Shown here: positions 3,309 through 18,159 of the stretch, piece after piece
Position numbering within the stretch: the stretch's first letter is position 1
Layout of the letters: every line of letters starts with the position of its first letter
Source of the DNA: an uncultured archaeon
GTDB taxonomy: Archaea; Asgardarchaeota; Heimdallarchaeia; Heimdallarchaeales; Heimdallarchaeaceae
Length of the DNA stretch: 18,159 nt
Assembly (NCBI GenBank): GCA_964534625.1
Contig: CAZHRF010000051.1
Span: forward strand, 1 to 18,159
Direction of reading: 5' to 3'
The notes under the pieces: model-generated
Told to the model about the DNA's origin: nothing
Seen by the model: the letters and a program-made list of their open reading frames with translations, nothing else
Databases searched by the model: none
Translations under genes and position numbers: made by a program

Positions 3309-3518
3309 AATAAATATTTTATACTATACTTTAAAATTCTAATGATCAAATTGATTTGAACCAAGTTTTTACTAAAAATTTATTAAAATGATGATACACC
3401 AAGAGTAGGTTGAAGTTAGGAAAAAATAAAGAGTTAAAAGAGGAGAAAAGTAAATCATAACTAATGCAAATGTTTGTTTGGCATGAGTATTCTTCACCTC
3501 GTAATTTTAATCCTTCTT

Positions 3519-4442
3519 TTACTTCTTTTTACGAATAACGACTAAGGTTGCTACTAATCCTATTGCTAATCCTATGAAGAGTAATGAAGGGTATTTAATT
3601 CCTTCTTCACTTTCATCTAGGGTATATTCTATATATTCAGGGCTGTTACCATTAATTCCTGTTAATTGATTCTCTGAGACATCATTTACACTTGAATTAG
3701 TTATTTGACTAGCAAAGAATAAATCTTCATCTGTAGTATCAATGGTTCCTTCATAATCTTGTATTTCTTGTTCAGTAAGTGTTCGTTGATAAAAAGCTAA
3801 ATGAGCAATACTTATATCTGATTCGGAGTATAAATCGCCTTTTTCATATCCTGGCGCACAATATTGTCCTCCCAAAAAGAACGGATTATCATTCGTGGAA
3901 TCATTTAATGGCCCCAACTCCAAGCTATCTACTAACTCACCATCAAGATAGAGCTTGTACATATTGTCTGGTAGACTAAATTGTACTATGATGTTATACC
4001 AGACATCTTTTTGGACAGTAAGGTCATCTTGACCTCGATCCATTCTCAAACTATTCCAACCATTTTTTTGGATCCAAAAAACTATTTGATCCTTAGCTTT
4101 TTCCGCTGTATTTAACTTGAGAGCAATATCTCCTTCTTTATCTTGCCACGCTGAACCTCTGAACCAATTCCATCCATAATTTGAAGCATTTAAGGGGGCT
4201 TTCAGCCTTTGGACAATAGACCAACTTGTATCAAGAGTAAAATTGGGGATTGTAGAAAAGTTTACATAATCTTCTTCAGTAGCATTAAAGTTTACATAAT
4301 AATCGTCTTGTGCTTCGCCTAGAGCAGTATTTTGTTGTTTCACACCAAGAGTTGATTTAGAACTCATAAGACATAGTGATAAAACTACTGAGAGAAAAAA
4401 TATACTAGTGTATAGTTTTTTTTTGCTTTTCCTCATATACAT
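3519..4442 (-). CDS. Secreted, C-terminally anchored LamG/concanavalin A-like (jelly-roll) domain protein
   Basis: Signal peptide (RKSKKK + hydrophobic stretch). LamG-like motifs 'WYNIIVQF', 'YKLYLDGELVDS', 'FFLGG' and 'IAHLAFYQRTLTEQEI'. C-terminal TM helix + RKKK. The start may be the ATG at 4436. Confidence 0.85.
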   Translation of the reverse strand: MYMRKSKKKLYTSIFFLSVVLSLCLMSSKSTLGVKQQNTALGEAQDDYYVNFNATEEDYVNFSTIPNFTLDTSWSIVQRLKAPLNASNYGWNWFRGSAWQDKEGDIALKLNTAEKAKDQIVFWIQKNGWNSLRMDRGQDDLTVQKDVWYNIIVQFSLPDNMYKLYLDGELVDSLELGPLNDSTNDNPFFLGGQYCAPGYEKGDLYSESDISIAHLAFYQRTLTEQEIQDYEGTIDTTDEDLFFASQITNSSVNDVSENQLTGINGNSPEYIEYTLDESEEGIKYPSLLFIGLAIGLVATLVVIRKKK

Positions 4443-4557
4443 TGTGAGTAGTAAAATACTTGATGAGATATAAACCTTGGGAATGATATTTTGTCAATAG
4501 CTAAGATATTAAAACAAAGGAAAAGCCTTTGGGGATAAATCAAATCATTCATTCTTT

Positions 4558-4875
4558 TTAGGGCCATTCTATTTTTACAAGATATTTTTTTGCAGTTGCC
4601 TTGTAATATTTCATCACAATAGCGTATTCATTCTTTACTTTTTTGGCGATATAAACTAAACCATGGTTAAGTAAATCCGTGATATGTCTTTTAATGGTTC
4701 CCGGATTTATTCCTAACTCATTTTTGATTTCTATAAGAGTCTTCTCTTCATGCAACAACTGCGAAAGTATCAGATTTTTCTTTTCGTGAAAAAGAACAGC
4801 TACTGTCTCAGGATCTTTAATGATTAGTTCTTTTTTCTGTTCTTTTTCGCTTACTTTCCTTCTATCCTCTACCAT
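4558..4875 (-). CDS. Winged helix-turn-helix (ArsR-like) transcriptional regulator
   Basis: 'KKNLILSQLLHEEKTLIEIKNELGINPGTIKRHITDLLNHGLV' is an HTH and 'IVMKYYKATAK' a wing. The start lies 1 nt after the upstream stop (TGA-A-ATG), consistent with translational coupling. Confidence 0.88.
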   Translation of the reverse strand: MVEDRRKVSEKEQKKELIIKDPETVAVLFHEKKNLILSQLLHEEKTLIEIKNELGINPGTIKRHITDLLNHGLVYIAKKVKNEYAIVMKYYKATAKKYLVKIEWP

Positions 4876-4876
4876 T

Positions 4877-5842
4877 TCATCTACTCTCTGCTATTGCTTC
4901 CTTTTCGTTAAAGGCTAATGAGGGTACTTTAGATAATTTTTCATCATTCTCATTTTCTATAACTAGCGGTTTGTATCTATCAAATTCTACTGAATTGTAT
5001 ATCCGGGTACTAATTAGAGATAATAAAGGCATCCCTAATACTATTTTAAATAGATATAGAACCATTATTATTATACTCATAATAATTAATAGTGGTATGT
5101 TTATAGTCGCATAGTTTAGAAGTAGTGTATATATAACTATAGCGAGATACGAAGGAAATAAGAACAGTACATAGAACAGGCTAAATGTTCTTATAACCCT
5201 CTCTGTATCTACTTTCAATATCTTTATTGATTCTATTATTGCTTCTTTTAATGATCCATGATTTGTTACGCTAGGTAAAGCGGTATTAAATGCTATAAGG
5301 AATGAAAAACTGATTACGTATCTGAGTGTAAATAAAATCAATATTAAAACTATATTGCCTTTTAAAAAAGACATCGATATTCGCAAATTCGCACGTATAA
5401 TTAGGAAATCTAATCCTGTAATAAATGATAACAAAATATATTTCCACCAATGAGCTTTGAAATAGATAAAGGCATTTTTGAATTCTGTAAACATATCTCC
5501 TGAACTAAGTATATCATATGCAAGTCCATACTGACAATAAAGAAAACTAATCCAGACTAAATAAATACTGATTGAGGATACACCAAGTATAATATGATAA
5601 ATATTTTTATCACCATGATTAAGTGGTCGTATCTGCAATCCATCCGCTGTAATCAGAGATGCAATAAAAAAGACCAATAAGTAAATTGTAAGCCCAGCTA
5701 GTATAAATGCGAGAAAAGCAAAAATTTCTGTTGCTAAATAAGCTTTATAGTTTTGTTTGAGCAATTTCCAGCTTATAGTGAAATCTTTTCTTGTTTCTGA
5801 TTGCATAGGGTCATTTGCTGGATCCTCCAAGTCGTTATTCAT
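4877..5842 (-). CDS. Polytopic membrane protein of unknown function (about 6-7 TM, DUF975-like architecture)
   Basis: 321-aa ORF with repeated hydrophobic helices, amphipathic 'SWKLLKQNYKAYL' and 'AIIESIKILK' segments, and a C-terminal 'STRIY'. Co-oriented in the ABC operon. Confidence 0.8.
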   Translation of the reverse strand: MNNDLEDPANDPMQSETRKDFTISWKLLKQNYKAYLATEIFAFLAFILAGLTIYLLVFFIASLITADGLQIRPLNHGDKNIYHIILGVSSISIYLVWISFLYCQYGLAYDILSSGDMFTEFKNAFIYFKAHWWKYILLSFITGLDFLIIRANLRISMSFLKGNIVLILILFTLRYVISFSFLIAFNTALPSVTNHGSLKEAIIESIKILKVDTERVIRTFSLFYVLFLFPSYLAIVIYTLLLNYATINIPLLIIMSIIIMVLYLFKIVLGMPLLSLISTRIYNSVEFDRYKPLVIENENDEKLSKVPSLAFNEKEAIAESR

Positions 5843-5963
5843 GCTACATTCTAACCATCCATCTATTTAGACTTTTTTGTTAGTTCTTTTGCATTTGAAA
5901 GAATAAGAGGAAGAAAATCTATTCAATTTTCTGCATTTTATTTTTCCTGCCATTTAAACTATC

Positions 5964-6836
5964 TTATTGCTTCTGTTGTCTAATTTTGAATAATATATGG
6001 GCTAGTCCTAGTAATATTGTTGCATAGACAACTATTCCTATTATCGCTCCGGGTACACTAGGGGTCAGCCAACTAAAATAAGTCGCACCATTGCCCCCTG
6101 GTCGCCCAAGTACCTTTTCTGCAAATCTAGACTCTGGCATATCTAGTATTGAAGTAATAATCGATCCATAATAGGTTAAGATAAAGAATGGCTCTATTTC
6201 AACACCTGTAAACATTAACATATTATGAGTTAAATTAAAAACGATAAGTATCATAAGGATACTTGATATAATCGCTGAATTTGTACTGTTCATAAAACTA
6301 CTAAAGAAAGTAACCATAGCTAAAACTAAGAACGCATAAAAAATTGCGAATCCTAAAGATGACCACGTTTCTACGGGTAATTCTTGATATTTAATGACTG
6401 TTGTTATCATGACTAGCAAGTAATAAAAAACAATTGAAGTTATGGTCAGTAAATATCTAGCTATTAGTCTTCCAAAGAGTAATCGTTCCTTAGGGATCTT
6501 TGGGAATATTAGGTTTCCCGTCTGTTTGTCATAATCTTCAGCTATGATTGATCCACCAAAGGTTACAGCAACAAGCATGATTAAAAATTCTATCAAGGAT
6601 AAATAACTTAAAATGTACTCGATTGGATCCTCTGGAGATTCTAATCCTCTTCCCTCTTGAATAAGGTTGATAGTTAGAAAGAGTCCATATATTAAGGTAA
6701 ATGTTACTAACATAATAAATAAATTTTTCATGTTTCTTTTCAATTCAAAAGAAATGGTAGATTTAATCTGAATTGCACTTCTTTTTGTTCCGATTTTTGT
6801 TTTTGTTAGTTGGTCTGTCTTTACAATTGTACTCAT
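5964..6836 (-). CDS. ABC-2 type transporter permease (COG1277-like)
   Basis: About 6 TM helices and the motif 'GSIIAEDYDKQTGNLIFPKIPKERLLFGRLIA'. Start moved from 6920 to the ATG at 6836, which is 1 nt after the ATPase stop (TAA-C-ATG) and preceded by GAGGT. Confidence 0.88.
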   Translation of the reverse strand: MSTIVKTDQLTKTKIGTKRSAIQIKSTISFELKRNMKNLFIMLVTFTLIYGLFLTINLIQEGRGLESPEDPIEYILSYLSLIEFLIMLVAVTFGGSIIAEDYDKQTGNLIFPKIPKERLLFGRLIARYLLTITSIVFYYLLVMITTVIKYQELPVETWSSLGFAIFYAFLVLAMVTFFSSFMNSTNSAIISSILMILIVFNLTHNMLMFTGVEIEPFFILTYYGSIITSILDMPESRFAEKVLGRPGGNGATYFSWLTPSVPGAIIGIVVYATILLGLAHILFKIRQQKQ

Positions 6837-6837
6837 G

Positions 6838-7887
6838 TTAATTACCTCTTTGACCTCGAATTTTTGTATAACTTCGATCCTCTCCATGTGATGAAATTGA
6901 CTTAAGATATAATTCCTCAAGAAGATTTGGCCTTGGAACTGACATACTTATGATATCTAAACCGTTTCTCGCAAGTTTCTTAAAAATGTTTAACTGCGTT
7001 TTGGGATTGCCATCAAATTCGATTTTGTAGACATTTAGTTCAGAATCATATTGAATTGAATTAGTACCATTTTCAAGTCCAGTTAAATTACCAACCAATT
7101 CCTGCAATTTTTTAATTGTCTTTTGTGTATCTTTTTTTGTTTCTAGCAACTCTATCTGCAGATAACTCTGTTTTACTAGCGCTTCCAAGTTTTCTAGAGT
7201 ATCTAACGCAATTAGCTTTCCATTATAAATTATCGCTATTCTGTCAGCTATCTCGCTAATCTCAAAAAGTAAATGACTACTAATAAAAACCGTTTTACCT
7301 TTGTTTTTCAAGGATTTTATGAATTCGCGTACTTCTCTTCTCGCTTTTGGATCCAGACCTGTTTGGGGCTCATCTAAAATAATCACATCGGGATCATGGA
7401 CTAAAGAAGCTAAAATACCCATACGTTGTTTCATACCCTTGGAAAATGTACCTATTGGTTTATCAATCCATGCCGACAAGCCAACCATCGCAATTGTTTC
7501 TTCTACCCTCTCGCCAATTTTTGATTTGGGATAACCTTTTAGTTCTGCAAAATAAGCTAAAACTTGTCGTGGTGTGACATTATCATAAAAAGCAGGTGTT
7601 TCTATTAAAAAACCTAAGTTATCTAAAAGATAGTCTTGGGTTTTCTGGTTTAGCTTCTGTAACTTTTCATTACGTCTTATCCATATTGAACCTTGATCTG
7701 GAATAAGAAGATTAGCTAACATTTTCATAGTTGTAGACTTCCCAGCTCCATTGGGACCCAAGAACCCCACGATCTCACCTCGTTTAATCTCTAATGATAT
7801 ATTCTCTACTGCCACAAACTTACCAAATGTCTTCGAGACATTCTGTAATTTAATTACCGTTTCACCATTTTCGTTGATTTCATTCAT
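6838..7887 (-). CDS. ABC-2 type transporter ATP-binding protein (COG1131-like)
   Basis: Walker A GPNGAGKST, signature FSKGM, Walker B ILDEP, H-loop SSH, plus a C-terminal extension 'PNLLEELYL'. Start moved from 7932 to the ATG at 7887, preceded by AGGTGA. Confidence 0.93.
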   Translation of the reverse strand: MNEINENGETVIKLQNVSKTFGKFVAVENISLEIKRGEIVGFLGPNGAGKSTTMKMLANLLIPDQGSIWIRRNEKLQKLNQKTQDYLLDNLGFLIETPAFYDNVTPRQVLAYFAELKGYPKSKIGERVEETIAMVGLSAWIDKPIGTFSKGMKQRMGILASLVHDPDVIILDEPQTGLDPKARREVREFIKSLKNKGKTVFISSHLLFEISEIADRIAIIYNGKLIALDTLENLEALVKQSYLQIELLETKKDTQKTIKKLQELVGNLTGLENGTNSIQYDSELNVYKIEFDGNPKTQLNIFKKLARNGLDIISMSVPRPNLLEELYLKSISSHGEDRSYTKIRGQRGN

Positions 7888-11681: not shown

Positions 11682-13124
11682 TCATAGAAATGGTTTTTTG
11701 TAGCCTCCAAGTTTCTCTTCCAAGTATAAAGCTATTTTTAGGGCTAAACCTTCCTTACCATGGTTAGTAATAATTTGGAAACCGATAGGTAAGCCATCAG
11801 CTGTTTCTCCACCTCTTAAAGTTACTGCAGGAAGTCCAGTTAGACTATAAGGGTGAGTATAAGACAAGTAATTCATTCCATTGAAGTCTTCTTTAGATGA
11901 AGCTCCATGCTCAAAGGCAGGTGTTGCAGCTATTGGACATACAATAGCGTCATATTGTTTCATAAAACTAAGCATTTCAGAACGAAAGACAGCCCATTTA
12001 ATACCCCAAAAATGCCAAGTTACAGCTAACATAGCATGTTCTCCTTGCACTTGTTTGGCCAAGTCTAACCATTCATCAGCTAGACCATAAATATTCTCAG
12101 GATAATATTCAAAATGTTCTTGATCTTTTTGCAAGGTGAATAATTGCCCAGCTGTTTGAGGATCTATTCCCCCGGCAAAAGAGTTCAGTCCTTGCCCTAT
12201 TTTAGAAAATTCTGTTGAAACGCTTGGATAGGTTTCGTCAACTTGTATATTTTTTTCTGTTAGAGCATTGGCTACATTATTAATAACTTGTTTAACAGAA
12301 GGATCAGCTGTAACCACACCATTATCAGAATAATAAGCAATCGTCAAGCCTTCAATATCTATATTCTCCGGGTCATCATACACTAAGGGCATACATCTTG
12401 GATCCCAATTATCAGGTCCAGCTATAATTGGTAAAGTTAAAATAAGATCTTTCACCCTTCGCGCTATTGGTCCGATACAGGTTGAATCTAAGAAACCTAA
12501 ATAATAAGGGATAGTGCCTGTTCGAGGAACACGACCAAAAGTAGGTACTAGACTTGCTAAGCCAGTGAAATGAGCTGGCCAACGTATACTTCCACCCGTA
12601 TCACTCCCTATACCTAAATAAGAACCGCCAGCTGAAATTAAAGCAGCTTCGCCTCCGCTACTAGAACCAACAGTTTTTTCAAGATTATAAGGATTCTTTG
12701 TTAACCCATATACTTGATTTGTGGTTTCAAAACCAGCACAATGGGAGGGACAATTAGTTTTACCTATGATAATAGCACCAGCATCTTTCAGTCTTTTAAC
12801 CACAGGAGCATCGAATGAAGGGATATAGTCCTTACGTCCATTTATACCGCCTGTTGTTACCATCCCTTTTACTTCAATGTTATCTTTAATTGAAACAGGT
12901 AAACCTGTCAATGGAGCGATAGAATCACTAGTTGAGAGGTGTTGATCAGTTGCTTTTGCTTGGTCTAAGAGTTTTTTTTCATCATAACAAACTAAAGCAT
13001 TAATATCCGGATTTATTGTAGTAATGTGTTCTAAAAGATTAACAATAACCTCTTCAACTGATAGTTCTTTAGAGTGAATTTTATGCAGTACTTCAGTAGC
13101 AGATAAGAACTGTAATTTTGACAT
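11682..13124 (-). CDS. Amidase signature (AS) family amidase, FAAH2-like rather than GatA
   Basis: Catalytic Lys in 'GLPVSIKDNI', 'GAIIIGKTN', 'TKNPYN', 'GSSSGGEAA' and nucleophile region 'GSDTGGSIRWPA'. C-terminal 'GLPIGFQI'. Confidence 0.92.
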   Translation of the reverse strand: MSKLQFLSATEVLHKIHSKELSVEEVIVNLLEHITTINPDINALVCYDEKKLLDQAKATDQHLSTSDSIAPLTGLPVSIKDNIEVKGMVTTGGINGRKDYIPSFDAPVVKRLKDAGAIIIGKTNCPSHCAGFETTNQVYGLTKNPYNLEKTVGSSSGGEAALISAGGSYLGIGSDTGGSIRWPAHFTGLASLVPTFGRVPRTGTIPYYLGFLDSTCIGPIARRVKDLILTLPIIAGPDNWDPRCMPLVYDDPENIDIEGLTIAYYSDNGVVTADPSVKQVINNVANALTEKNIQVDETYPSVSTEFSKIGQGLNSFAGGIDPQTAGQLFTLQKDQEHFEYYPENIYGLADEWLDLAKQVQGEHAMLAVTWHFWGIKWAVFRSEMLSFMKQYDAIVCPIAATPAFEHGASSKEDFNGMNYLSYTHPYSLTGLPAVTLRGGETADGLPIGFQIITNHGKEGLALKIALYLEEKLGGYKKPFL

Positions 13125-13312: not shown

Positions 13313-13510
13313 TTATATTAAGTGCATGTCATTGATTACTGAATTTTTGGGTATATCGCCTTTGTAGTACTCTTTTTCAATAAATTCAGCTATAGCATCC
13401 CTAATTAGTTCTGACCTGTTATTATAATTTAATTGATTGAGCATTTTGTGAAGATCATTAATCATCGAATCTGTTACCTTAAATGTGATGAGTTTTTTCT
13501 TATCAGACAT
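13313..13510 (-). CDS. Ribbon-helix-helix (CopG/NikR-N-like) DNA-binding protein
   Basis: Beta-strand 'LITFKV', helix A, then 'NRSELIRDAIAEFI'. AGGTGA RBS upstream of the ATG. Confidence 0.85.
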   Translation of the reverse strand: MSDKKKLITFKVTDSMINDLHKMLNQLNYNNRSELIRDAIAEFIEKEYYKGDIPKNSVINDMHLI

Positions 13511-13614: not shown

Positions 13615-14589
13615 TTACACTTTTTTTATTAACTGTTTCTTAAAAATAGGATCGTGATTATAATAGTGTTTATCGTTAAGCAAATAGAATATTTTGCCTA
13701 AAATGAGAAGAATAGAGGGGTGAAGAGTAAATTTGGGTTCAGGGAATAAGGAACGTATAGACTGTAAGGACAGAGAATAACGCTCATAGGTATTCGTATG
13801 CGGGTCAGTTAAACATAAGAATTTTTTTTCTGAGGGGAGTTTAATAAAAGCTGTGGCTTTATAATCTAACATATATTCTTGTAATGACCCCACAACATGG
13901 ATATAGTTGTCTTCAAGATAAATACGTTCGCGTAAGGAAGGAAAAACAGTTGTTAATTGGTTGATAACCAGTTCTATTTTGTGCAATTTTTTTTCGACTA
14001 AAACTTGATGGGGTTCAACTAAACGGGCTATAACCGTGCTGGCTGAATCAAATAAAAGAGCATCAAATTCAGAAAGATCGGAAGAAACTATTTTAGAAAG
14101 GACAGCTATTCCCCATTCTTCTTGAATGAGATATTCCACATCGTTCATTGAGTCATGAATGTGGTTAAGTGTAGAATCAGAAAGGGAAGATAGATCATGG
14201 GCAGGCATATAACCATAAAGGACAATGATATGGGGTTCAACTTTATTATAAATGAGATATCTATGAATTAATTTATACAAGTCTTCAGCATCAAGCCGCT
14301 CAGTAACATCATAGGAAAGAATTAACCCGATGCTACCAGTGGTATGCAACTCCTGTATAGAACTGAATCTGTGCTTCTCATTAATATTCCATATTTGGAA
14401 GACGACATTACTAGAGTTAATCTTTTTTTTCCAGATATAAAAGGAAACACCAATGGTGTTGAAATGATTCTTGTAAAAAAGACCATCTGTATCACTATGG
14501 GACTCTTTCAAGTGAAGAATATTAGCTCGATCAAGCATGACAAGCTTGAATATTCTTTTCGTAAGAACTTCCGGAGATTCAGCAGTCAA
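13615..14589 (-). CDS. Rab-like pseudo-GTPase fused to a DUF4132-C-terminal (DUF7737-like) domain
   Basis: IFKLVML / TIGVSF / FQIW / RFSSI / GSIGLILSYDVT align without gaps to Rab1, while G1, G3, G4 and G5 are degenerate. The C-terminal ~125 aa contains 'IYLEDNYIHVVGSLQEYMLD...FLCL...LLILGKIFYLLND....DPIFKKQL'. TTG start with TATA-like TTTTATAT/TTTAAATA 15-30 nt upstream. Confidence 0.78.
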   Translation of the reverse strand: MTAESPEVLTKRIFKLVMLDRANILHLKESHSDTDGLFYKNHFNTIGVSFYIWKKKINSSNVVFQIWNINEKHRFSSIQELHTTGSIGLILSYDVTERLDAEDLYKLIHRYLIYNKVEPHIIVLYGYMPAHDLSSLSDSTLNHIHDSMNDVEYLIQEEWGIAVLSKIVSSDLSEFDALLFDSASTVIARLVEPHQVLVEKKLHKIELVINQLTTVFPSLRERIYLEDNYIHVVGSLQEYMLDYKATAFIKLPSEKKFLCLTDPHTNTYERYSLSLQSIRSLFPEPKFTLHPSILLILGKIFYLLNDKHYYNHDPIFKKQLIKKV

Positions 14590-14821
14590 GTAGGTACAAG
14601 CACTATTTAAAATATAAAAATATTCGGTTGTGGTGAAAGATTAATTTAAAAAAGCATCTAATAAAAGCATCTTTTTCAAAAATTAAAAAAAATCGAACAC
14701 TAAAGACCTTAAAAAGATAGATAAGTTCAATTCCGGATGAAAATGATCGGAGCGAGAACAATAAAAGATTAAAAAATACCAAGAACGATTATAAAGAGGA
14801 AATAGTAGTAAGAGAGAAAGA

Positions 14822-15865
14822 ATGAACTTTGAACAATTATTTCTTGGGCTTTATACAATAAGAAAAGTGATAGCCAACCCCATTGATGAGTATAATATAA
14901 TCAATGAAATGAATAGCCTTAATCTTTTTAATATCTTTTACTGTACTATTTTCAATGAGATATTTATGAAACAGATACATTTTCAATCAGGATTTATTTC
15001 AATAAAAAAGTTGTACTTACTCCTCTTGCTTTCTTGGTTAGGAGTGTTTCCTATTTTATTCATAACAGGTATAATAACATGTAAGAATTTAGCGTGCGCG
15101 ATAATTATGCTACATGGTTTTTATGGATTAATGATTATACCTTTGATATTAATTATCCCTATAATGGATCTAATACATCAAGAAGTAAGAGATAGAGCAA
15201 TTAAAGTGAATTTTATCAATGAACCTCAATACAAAGTTTCTTCAATTGCCTTATTGGTGACTATGTTAATCCTATTAGTAATAGAAACGATAATTGGAAA
15301 AAATGATGGTGGAGAAGTGGTCTCAATAATCATTAAAACAGTCTTTTTTATCAACTTTCTAACAATTGCTTTGACTTTTCCGTTTGTATTAAAGTTTGCA
15401 AAAAAGAAAAAGAAAAAGAAAAAGAGAAAACAACTAAAATATGCTCCTCTGAGCTTGATAATAACAAATATACTCTTTTTAGTCTATCTGATAGCTATTT
15501 TTCCGCTAATAAATATTATAAGTTATCCAATCATTATAAGTTATCTTATAATTAGTACTTGGTGGATATGGCTTCAAATATCCAAAAAAAGTTCGGAAAA
15601 GAAAAAAGTACTAGAAGAGAATAAAACAAGAGAGAGAGAAGAAAAAGATAACCATATACCTACTGCAGAAAAAAAGGAAACAGAAATGAAATATTGGTTA
15701 TTATATTCATTTTATCTTCTGGTACTGAGTATATTTGGTATTTCCATTGGATACGCGTCTTTTATTACTACTAACTATATCCCTATATTAGCAATTCTAG
15801 CTGGATTTGATATTTTCATTGGTGTTTGTGTATTAATAGCATTATTAGATCAACAGAATAGATAA
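14822..15865 (+). CDS. Polytopic membrane protein of unknown function (about 8 TM) with polybasic loops
   Basis: Pairs of hydrophobic helices separated by KKKKKKKKRK and a long Lys/Glu-rich loop. The start is uncertain: ATG 14822 has TTATAAA at 14789-14795, and ATG 14966 is an alternative. Confidence 0.75.
   Translation: MNFEQLFLGLYTIRKVIANPIDEYNIINEMNSLNLFNIFYCTIFNEIFMKQIHFQSGFISIKKLYLLLLLSWLGVFPILFITGIITCKNLACAIIMLHGFYGLMIIPLILIIPIMDLIHQEVRDRAIKVNFINEPQYKVSSIALLVTMLILLVIETIIGKNDGGEVVSIIIKTVFFINFLTIALTFPFVLKFAKKKKKKKKRKQLKYAPLSLIITNILFLVYLIAIFPLINIISYPIIISYLIISTWWIWLQISKKSSEKKKVLEENKTREREEKDNHIPTAEKKETEMKYWLLYSFYLLVLSIFGISIGYASFITTNYIPILAILAGFDIFIGVCVLIALLDQQNR
15401..15424 (+). repeat. (AAAAAG)4 in-frame microsatellite encoding Lys8
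   Basis: Alternating AAA/AAG codons read directly from the sequence. Confidence 0.85.
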
Positions 15866-17290: not shown

Positions 17291-18159
17291 TTATGGTCTT
17301 TTTTTGGTTTTATGTTTATACTTGATAGATCCTGCTATTAATACTGAAACTCCAATGAAAATTATCGATGTAAATGAAGAAGGTTCAAGGTCAGTAGTAG
17401 ATCCATTATTGGGGTTTTCATCATCATCATCATCTTCTATGGCGTACGGTAAAGGATAAAGGTCTTCACTATTAGCAGAACCATCAATAGGATAGGATCC
17501 CTCGCCTGACCAATCAGACCAGTAATTACCATATTGCAGCTGTTCATTATACCAAAAATTGTTAGTCCCATTATCAAAAGCTTGAGAAGAAGAACCATCT
17601 CCATTAGTAATAAAAGAATTGAAATAGATGCGATTGTTGTAGGAATGAGCACTAATATCGACTCCATATCCTCGATTATCGCGTATAGTATTGTTCATAA
17701 TAGTATTATCAGAACTTTCAAAAATATATACCCCATTATAATTCTTTTTTAATGTGTTATGAGAAATGAGAGTATTAGTAGAATTGTATATAATAGATAT
17801 GCCATCATAATTACCAGTAATAATATTGTGCATAACAACAGTTGAATTAGCACCAGCATAGATAACTAATCCATCATAATTATCTGTTATACTATTGTTA
17901 CTAATGGTCGTATTAAAACTAGAACATACTATGCCATACCAATTAGTGTTATTGCTGATCTCATTCTGTGTTACAATTGCATGAGAACTGTCAGAAAGAG
18001 AGAGACCATAAGCATTACGGATAAGAGCATTATAAGAAAATGTTATATTAGGACTATCGGAAATATAAACTCCACCCCATGTGTTTGTTGATATTGTGTT
18101 ATGAGATATAGATGTATTGCCAGAATTATAACTGATATAAATACCATGATCATTGTTGT
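17291..18159 (-). CDS. Membrane-anchored NosD-like parallel beta-helix surface protein, 5'-truncated by the window edge
   Basis: The frame is open from the window end to the stop at 17291. The extension beyond the track's 17833 start reads NNDHGIYISYNSGNTSISHNTISTNTWGGVYISDSPNITF... Also 'FNSFITN..SQAFDNG..N.W....GNYWSDW.G...DLYPL', an acidic linker, a TM helix and a KYKHKTKKRP tail. Confidence 0.9.
   Translation of the reverse strand, partial: NNDHGIYISYNSGNTSISHNTISTNTWGGVYISDSPNITFSYNALIRNAYGLSLSDSSHAIVTQNEISNNTNWYGIVCSSFNTTISNNSITDNYDGLVIYAGANSTVVMHNIITGNYDGISIIYNSTNTLISHNTLKKNYNGVYIFESSDNTIMNNTIRDNRGYGVDISAHSYNNRIYFNSFITNGDGSSSQAFDNGTNNFWYNEQLQYGNYWSDWSGEGSYPIDGSANSEDLYPLPYAIEDDDDDENPNNGSTTDLEPSSFTSIIFIGVSVLIAGSIKYKHKTKKRP
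17418..17434 (-). repeat. (GAT)5 microsatellite encoding a poly-Asp linker
   Basis: TCA x5 on the plus strand, encoding EDDDDDE in the stalk before the TM anchor. Confidence 0.75.

Follow-up and report, generated by a model that had tools for sequence, protein, structure and literature searches.

The stretch of DNA analysed here (the window) comprises 18,159 nucleotides (nt) of contig CAZHRF010000051.1 from an uncultured archaeon of the Heimdallarchaeaceae (assembly GCA_964534625.1). According to the list of its open reading frames (ORFs), it carries on the minus strand, at 13615..14589, a gene of 324 codons plus a TAA stop that starts with TTG at 14589. The product of this gene joins a Rab-like domain to a C-terminal domain of the DUF7737 type, and this fusion is real, rare and undescribed. 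The initial annotation had proposed a Rab-like fold linked to the module that ends bacterial DUF4132 proteins, starting from the segment 13615-13992 (minus strand), which corresponds to codons 200-324 plus the TAA stop of ORF 13615-14589. The residues it quoted are present there, and the proposed fusion is borne out by sequence, profile and predicted fold, as well as by proteins from a sister genus that pass the cut-offs for both domains.

The N-terminal domain (amino acids (aa) 9-191; 14017..14565, minus strand) was delimited by Pfam Ras, Foldseek and alignment. Pfam Ras (PF00071) matched with an E-value of 1e-7 (32 bits, the cut-off being 21.6), the alignment being confined to profile positions 21-109, and all 50 of the 50 best PDB matches listed by Foldseek were Rab-family GTPases (human Rabs, yeast Ypt/Sec4), headed by Rab1, Rab3, Rab8 and Rab43 at E-values of about 1e-9 to 1e-8. 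The Rab-like fold suspected at the N-terminus is thereby confirmed. When the family was aligned with canonical Asgard small GTPases from the representative-library search, the G1 P-loop GxxxxGK[ST] was found replaced by D-R-A-N-I-L-H-L, which contains neither Gly nor Lys. In the window protein, N-I-N-E-K stands in place of G3 (DxxGQ) and Y-M-P-A-H-D in place of G4 (NKxD), and the G5 SAK is not present in this alignment. These four motifs are gone from every family member aligned, and TIG, QIW and RF are retained. Because G1, G3, G4 and G5 were lost in all relatives, the N-terminal half is, judged by its motifs, a conserved pseudo-GTPase with a Rab fold that cannot be expected to serve as the usual nucleotide switch. 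Since the nucleotide motifs are all lost, nucleotide-dependent docking on the switch regions is unlikely as well. Besides, the C-terminal cysteine motif used for Rab prenylation is absent, the fusion protein ending in I-K-K-V after its DUF7737 domain.

The C-terminal domain (aa 194-321; 13627..14010, minus strand), delimited by Pfam, hhalign and predicted fold, has a predicted layout of one long helix, a five-strand beta-meander and four helices. DUF7737 (PF24879), the sole Pfam family matching residues 190-324, covers aa 218-308 with an E-value of 8e-4 (19.8 bits) when only the domain is searched and 9e-3 (16.4 bits) when the whole protein is, the Pfam gathering cut-off of this family being 27 bits. 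Six of the seven other family members match PF24879 at the same place (E 2.5e-4 to 1e-2, 16-21 bits). In comparisons with hhalign, the C-terminal profile of the family aligned over 93 columns with five Asgard DUF7737 domains, four of which exceed the Pfam cut-off (E 2e-6, probability 89.5%), and colinearly with two bacterial DUF4132-DUF7737 C-termini (E 1.1e-4 and 6.6e-4). The AlphaFold2 (AF2) model of aa 195-324 reached a predicted local distance difference test (pLDDT) score of 83.5 and a predicted template modelling score (pTM) of 0.79. In the ESM Atlas, where predicted models stand on both sides of the comparison, the top two matches for these residues were bacterial DUF4132/DUF7737 clusters (template modelling (TM) scores of 0.69 and 0.67 over 112 and 109 aligned residues), and the third-ranked match scored 0.45. 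Solved structures searched by sequence gave no match below an E-value of 0.4. As four independent lines agree (Pfam, archaeal profiles, bacterial profiles and fold), the C-terminal half is, by profile and predicted structure, a divergent member of DUF7737, in keeping with the resemblance to DUF4132 C-termini that had been noticed in the last ~125 residues.

Seven positions are invariant in all 13 archaeal domains aligned (G234, Y239, C259, L303, D306, D313 and Q319), and overall identity between the archaeal DUF7737 subfamilies is only 16-21%. Cys259, whose codon lies at 13813..13815 (minus strand), was placed by the alignment of archaeal domains, by hhalign to bacterial domains and by a codon check. 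It aligns with the LC of bacterial DUF7737, and the other invariant positions match conserved bacterial residues.

A PF24879 profile search of 301 genomes of the phylum yielded DUF7737 proteins above the cut-off (28-44 bits) in a sister genus of the same order. Two of these, P0134 (379 aa) and P0135 (560 aa), score above the Pfam cut-offs for Ras as well as for DUF7737, and the Ras+DUF7737 architecture is on this sequence evidence genuine. Both have the same domain order as the window protein, but longer linkers. The N-terminal profile of the window family matched P0134 with a probability of 92.6% (E 4.7e-7), the C-terminal half of P0134 being matched in the Asgard DUF7737 comparison above, and the sister-genus fusions are degenerate at the same motif sites, the P-loop Gly-Lys being missing here too. 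DxxG is replaced by W-N-I or W-Q-V in the sister-genus fusions, W-N-I being common to both subfamilies. The sister genus also encodes DUF7737 proteins of 583-586 aa (P0136 and P0137, from loci L010 and L028), the ~460-residue N-terminal part of which has no Pfam family. A Ras-like nature of this part was not supported (probability 0.6%, with the match confined to the C-terminus), and it is a second archaeal partner of DUF7737. The search for this architecture in Asgard genomes thus returned P0134 and P0135, a different N-terminal partner in P0136 and P0137, and the gene neighbours described further below.

The fusion is rare. A HMMER search of 1.84 billion representatives gave only five full-length clusters, the remaining matches being to the Ras-like half alone, and the domain was found in 7 of the 83 genomes of the class examined, spread over four genera. 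None of the 25 genomes searched from the family's largest genus carried the domain, nor did two genomes of the class that consist of a single contig, and a word-index search for longer carriers gave nothing beyond sequences already known. No name for these fusion proteins appeared in any source checked, the term 'DUF7737' was not found in a literature search across about 8.4 million papers and preprints, and no function was assigned to DUF4132 or DUF7737 by papers in the literature searched. The architecture is therefore unusual rather than widely annotated, as had been supposed. A review of Asgard GTPase fusions lists longin and roadblock partners only and does not mention DUF7737 (PMC10933270). 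Those fusions likewise combine a Ras-superfamily domain with a small alpha/beta partner (Tran et al. 2024, PMC10933270), whereas in the present case the partner is DUF7737 and the G-domain is dead. The genome of the window (G000) has four UQ_con (E2-like) genes on other contigs (C1, C5, C36, C72) and at least nine further Ras-like genes, again on other contigs (C40, C33, C17, C11 and others), a gene content typical for Heimdall-type Asgard archaea.

In bacteria, DUF7737 scored 133-136 bits at the extreme C-terminus of two DUF4132 proteins (865-869 aa) encoded on Bacteroidota megaplasmids (WP_338394806.1 from Fulvitalea axinellae pFA1 and WP_284687872.1 from Chondrinema litorale), which agrees with the statement of the initial annotation that the module ends such proteins. 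Both genes fetched have, directly upstream, an ORF of 128-129 aa that ends in L-V-G-G-stop (L067 5134-5520; L068 5273-5662). At L068 this ORF is translationally coupled to the next gene, and at L067 a DUF5724 giant lies nearby. The bacterial and archaeal domains share the predicted fold (TM 0.67-0.69), colinearity, the residues G, Y, L-C, K, D, D and Q, and the position at the extreme C-terminus. On the other hand, the bacterial domain comes after ~750 residues including DUF4132, in a gene that follows the small Gly-Gly-ended ORF, whereas the archaeal domain comes after a 190-aa dead Rab-like domain, with neither DUF4132 nor a Gly-Gly ORF nearby. Indeed, DUF4132 (PF13569) had no match in the window fusion protein, and the idea that it might be hidden in the HEAT-repeat proteins encoded next to the fusion in relatives was rejected, as no match arose even at an E-value of 10. 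Neither the window nor any of 12 related archaeal loci contained a credible Gly-Gly-ended ORF, and a single query with the bacterial Gly-Gly protein found no relative in this genome. The two domains are separable in bacteria too, because YehI of E. coli K-12 (yehI, L032 6280-9912) has DUF4132 without DUF7737. No DUF7737 match was found on the K-12 chromosome, which rules E. coli out as a model for this domain.

Public gene calls start the fusion gene at the ATG of codon 18 (14538), giving a protein of 307 aa. This start would cut off the central beta-1 strand, which in the AF2 model comprises residues 11-20 (mean pLDDT 85) and crosses Met18. More distant homologues open with M-T-K-R-I-F-K and span the region before Met18. 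Both observations make TTG 14589 a more probable start than the ATG. From the sequence, a TATA-like box, TTTTTATATT, was read at 14611..14620 (minus strand). It precedes the TTG by 22-31 nt, which implies an mRNA that is leaderless or almost so. The closest relative (L074, 88% identical) matches the window exactly in the promoter and over the first 17 codons, and its DNA farther upstream diverges. The full-length AF2 model (pTM 0.77, pLDDT 80.4) suggests that the two domains pack in a defined arrangement.

Next to the fusion gene, at 13313..13510 (minus strand), lies a gene for a 65-aa ribbon-helix-helix (RHH) protein of the CopG type, assigned by Pfam RHH_1 (PF01402; E 6e-6, 26.4 bits against a cut-off of 20.5, with relatives at ~30 bits) and by synteny. 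An RHH gene (62-78 aa) accompanies the fusion gene in nine of nine loci examined; it is the next gene downstream in seven, and an insertion puts it 4.5 kb away in the other two. The RHH proteins are 46-55% identical across loci and share a conserved tail past the DNA-binding core, E-Y-[YF]-x-G-x-[IV]-P. Most relatives have, directly upstream of the fusion gene, a 371-aa HEAT-repeat gene whose products are 57-61% identical among them; in two loci, the contig carries only the C-terminal part of this gene. Both neighbours are thus more conserved than the fusion protein itself (27-37% identity). The sister-genus fusions, P0134 and P0135 included, have neither a downstream RHH gene nor a directly adjacent 371-aa HEAT gene. 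At L069, a 233-aa HEAT_PBS-type protein is encoded 1.2 kb upstream of P0134 on the opposite strand (3505-4206, minus strand), with generic similarity to the 371-aa protein (30% over 129 columns). A complex prediction for the fusion and RHH proteins scored 0.00, which weighs neither way. PADLOC gave no match for the fusion protein, the RHH protein, P0134, P0136 or a bacterial DUF4132 protein, and returned generic HEAT similarity only for the neighbours. The defence-related role that the initial annotation had suggested finds no support in these data.

The locus is an insertion hot spot. At L035, a TnpB (Cas12f1-like) gene lies between the HEAT and fusion genes (4954-6246, minus strand), and at L075 a four-gene block including a leucine-rich repeat protein separates the fusion and RHH genes (4291-7635). 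In the window, an ORF for a multi-pass membrane protein of 347 aa, which has a poly-Lys run and lacks any Pfam match (14822-15865, plus strand), stands between the fusion gene and a GNAT gene. As L074 instead has a 327-aa gene on the opposite strand directly upstream of its fusion gene, equal in length to the window GNAT gene (matched by length alone), this membrane ORF may be a recent insertion. Relatives also encode, convergent to the cassette, a conserved protein of 181-186 aa without a Pfam match and an Eco57I-type methylase of 662-681 aa with a TaqI_C domain (L034 8836-11501; L035 7724-10392; L033 1547-3535; L075 8467-11135), neither of which occurs in the window. There, an amidase gene (11682-13124) comes after the RHH gene, and NosD/right-handed beta-helix proteins are encoded at both contig ends (547-3264, plus strand; 17291-18157, minus strand), the second running off the end.

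Pseudo-GTPases such as CENP-M have retained the small-GTPase fold as a scaffold after losing the nucleotide-binding motifs. They carry no fused Cys-bearing domain, unlike the window protein, and no sequence relationship to them is claimed. By analogy with such proteins, the dead Rab domain may be a constitutive protein-binding scaffold. The overall reading we favour, at a little less than an even chance, is that of a Rab-like scaffold, independent of nucleotides, that bears a DUF7737 domain with its cysteine and is encoded together with an RHH regulator, the most likely mechanism as judged from conservation and synteny. The gene product would be a two-domain cytoplasmic protein in which the scaffold, probably bound by the HEAT solenoid in relatives, would position DUF7737 as the working part. 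Cys259, D306, D313 and Q319 would form the functional site, and the RHH protein would act as the DNA-binding regulator of the cassette. DUF7737 itself is most likely of bacterial origin and would have been joined to an already degenerate Ras-like domain, an event that probably predates the split of the two archaeal subfamilies, given that both have W-N-I in place of DxxG. Several observations weigh against this reading. The window protein stays below the DUF7737 gathering score (19.8 versus 27 bits), a 4.5-kb insertion parts the fusion and RHH genes in two loci, and the RHH gene might instead go with the genes on its other side. In addition, the HEAT gene is absent from the window and from L074, and no HEAT orthologue was found in this 90%-complete genome, where other contigs gave only generic HEAT-repeat similarity, so that the proposed partner of the scaffold is absent here.

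Cys259 would have a different role if DUF7737 were a cryptic E2- or UEV-like domain: through this residue it would handle a ubiquitin-like protein whose gene lies elsewhere in the genome, and the dead Rab domain would target this activity. The only PDB-wide structural matches of the domain model, although weak, are mostly to UBC/E2, UEV, RWD, UFC1 and Atg10 folds, in which helix, beta-meander and helices follow in the order predicted for DUF7737. The UBC/E2, UEV and RWD folds may resemble DUF7737 also in a conserved cysteine after the meander; in the model, the invariant Cys259 sits there, before the next helix. The location of both fetched bacterial genes right after an L-V-G-G-stop ORF and the presence of a ubiquitin system in this genome (the four UQ_con genes) are consistent with this proposal. 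However, the HPN motif is missing upstream of Cys259, none of the archaeal fusion genes has a Gly-Gly-ended ORF nearby, and the search of this genome with the one bacterial Gly-Gly query was negative. Kinship with E2 proteins (PF00179) by profile was rejected, as hhalign against an Asgard E2 alignment gave a probability of 0.14%. We therefore regard the E2-like proposal as improbable, and the handling of ubiquitin-like proteins by DUF7737 as a lead rather than a result. The wider version, according to which DUF7737 is the cysteine working domain of an undescribed, bacteria-wide system for handling ubiquitin-like proteins that a few Heimdall-type archaea captured, released from DUF4132 and the Gly-Gly partner and fused to a dead Rab, appears equally unlikely. 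The same low chance applies to a passive structural subunit, in which DUF7737 would be a mere dimerisation or assembly module with a role like that of the C-terminal roadblock of Rag GTPases. Rag/Gtr1 and Asgard GTPase-roadblock fusions (PMC10933270) do have a Ras-like domain with a compact alpha/beta domain at its C-terminal end, and a language-model feature search put Gtr1/RagA fragments first, yet its score of 0.78 falls short of what shuffled proteins attain in one case out of three. The order of strands and helices also differs from that of roadblock, and the idea of a roadblock/Rag C-terminal domain was rejected on these two grounds. Moreover, the invariance of a Cys, two Asp and a Gln at 16-21% identity would be rare for a passive interface.

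The RHH gene, which we read as a regulator in the favoured scheme, might alternatively form a toxin-antitoxin-like pair, or an effector with its regulator, with the fusion gene, the RHH protein neutralising or repressing via its conserved tail. The pair stays together where HEAT and other neighbours were lost (window, L074), and the extension of the RHH protein past its DNA-binding core is antitoxin-like. The setting is also a variable region, into which TnpB, a block of four genes and a gene for a membrane protein have been inserted, and in relatives a restriction-modification methylase adjoins it. Still, the order is atypical, with the large protein first, a 104-nt gap and a possible separate promoter; a toxin-like catalytic motif is missing, PADLOC found no match, and the genes lie 4.5 kb apart in two loci, making such a pair decidedly unlikely. 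Least of all do we expect the DUF7737 similarity to be convergent or due to chance, with the C-terminal half being an unrelated archaeal domain. The window protein does fall short of the Pfam gathering score, and its identity to genuine DUF7737 is just 16-21%, but Pfam matches recur across relatives, profile-profile matches link the family to both archaeal and bacterial members, the top two fold matches stand well apart from the rest, and the same seven positions are conserved. We consider this explanation very improbable.

DUF4132 and DUF7737 proteins are common in bacteria. The archaeal fusion presents DUF7737 without DUF4132 and without an adjacent Gly-Gly protein, yet with the invariant Cys, Asp, Asp and Gln retained, and so isolates a 125-residue module of a size suited to direct biochemical and structural study. 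Concrete candidate partners are the products of the conserved RHH and HEAT genes next to the fusion gene. If the ubiquitin-like lead were true, the prokaryotes most closely related to eukaryotes would possess an archaeal protein in which a Rab-type surface for interactions is linked to ubiquitin-like chemistry. This is a conserved pseudo-GTPase family in a lineage whose small GTPases inform the debate on the origin of eukaryotic trafficking, and GTPase counts in Asgard genomes should not be taken as switch counts.
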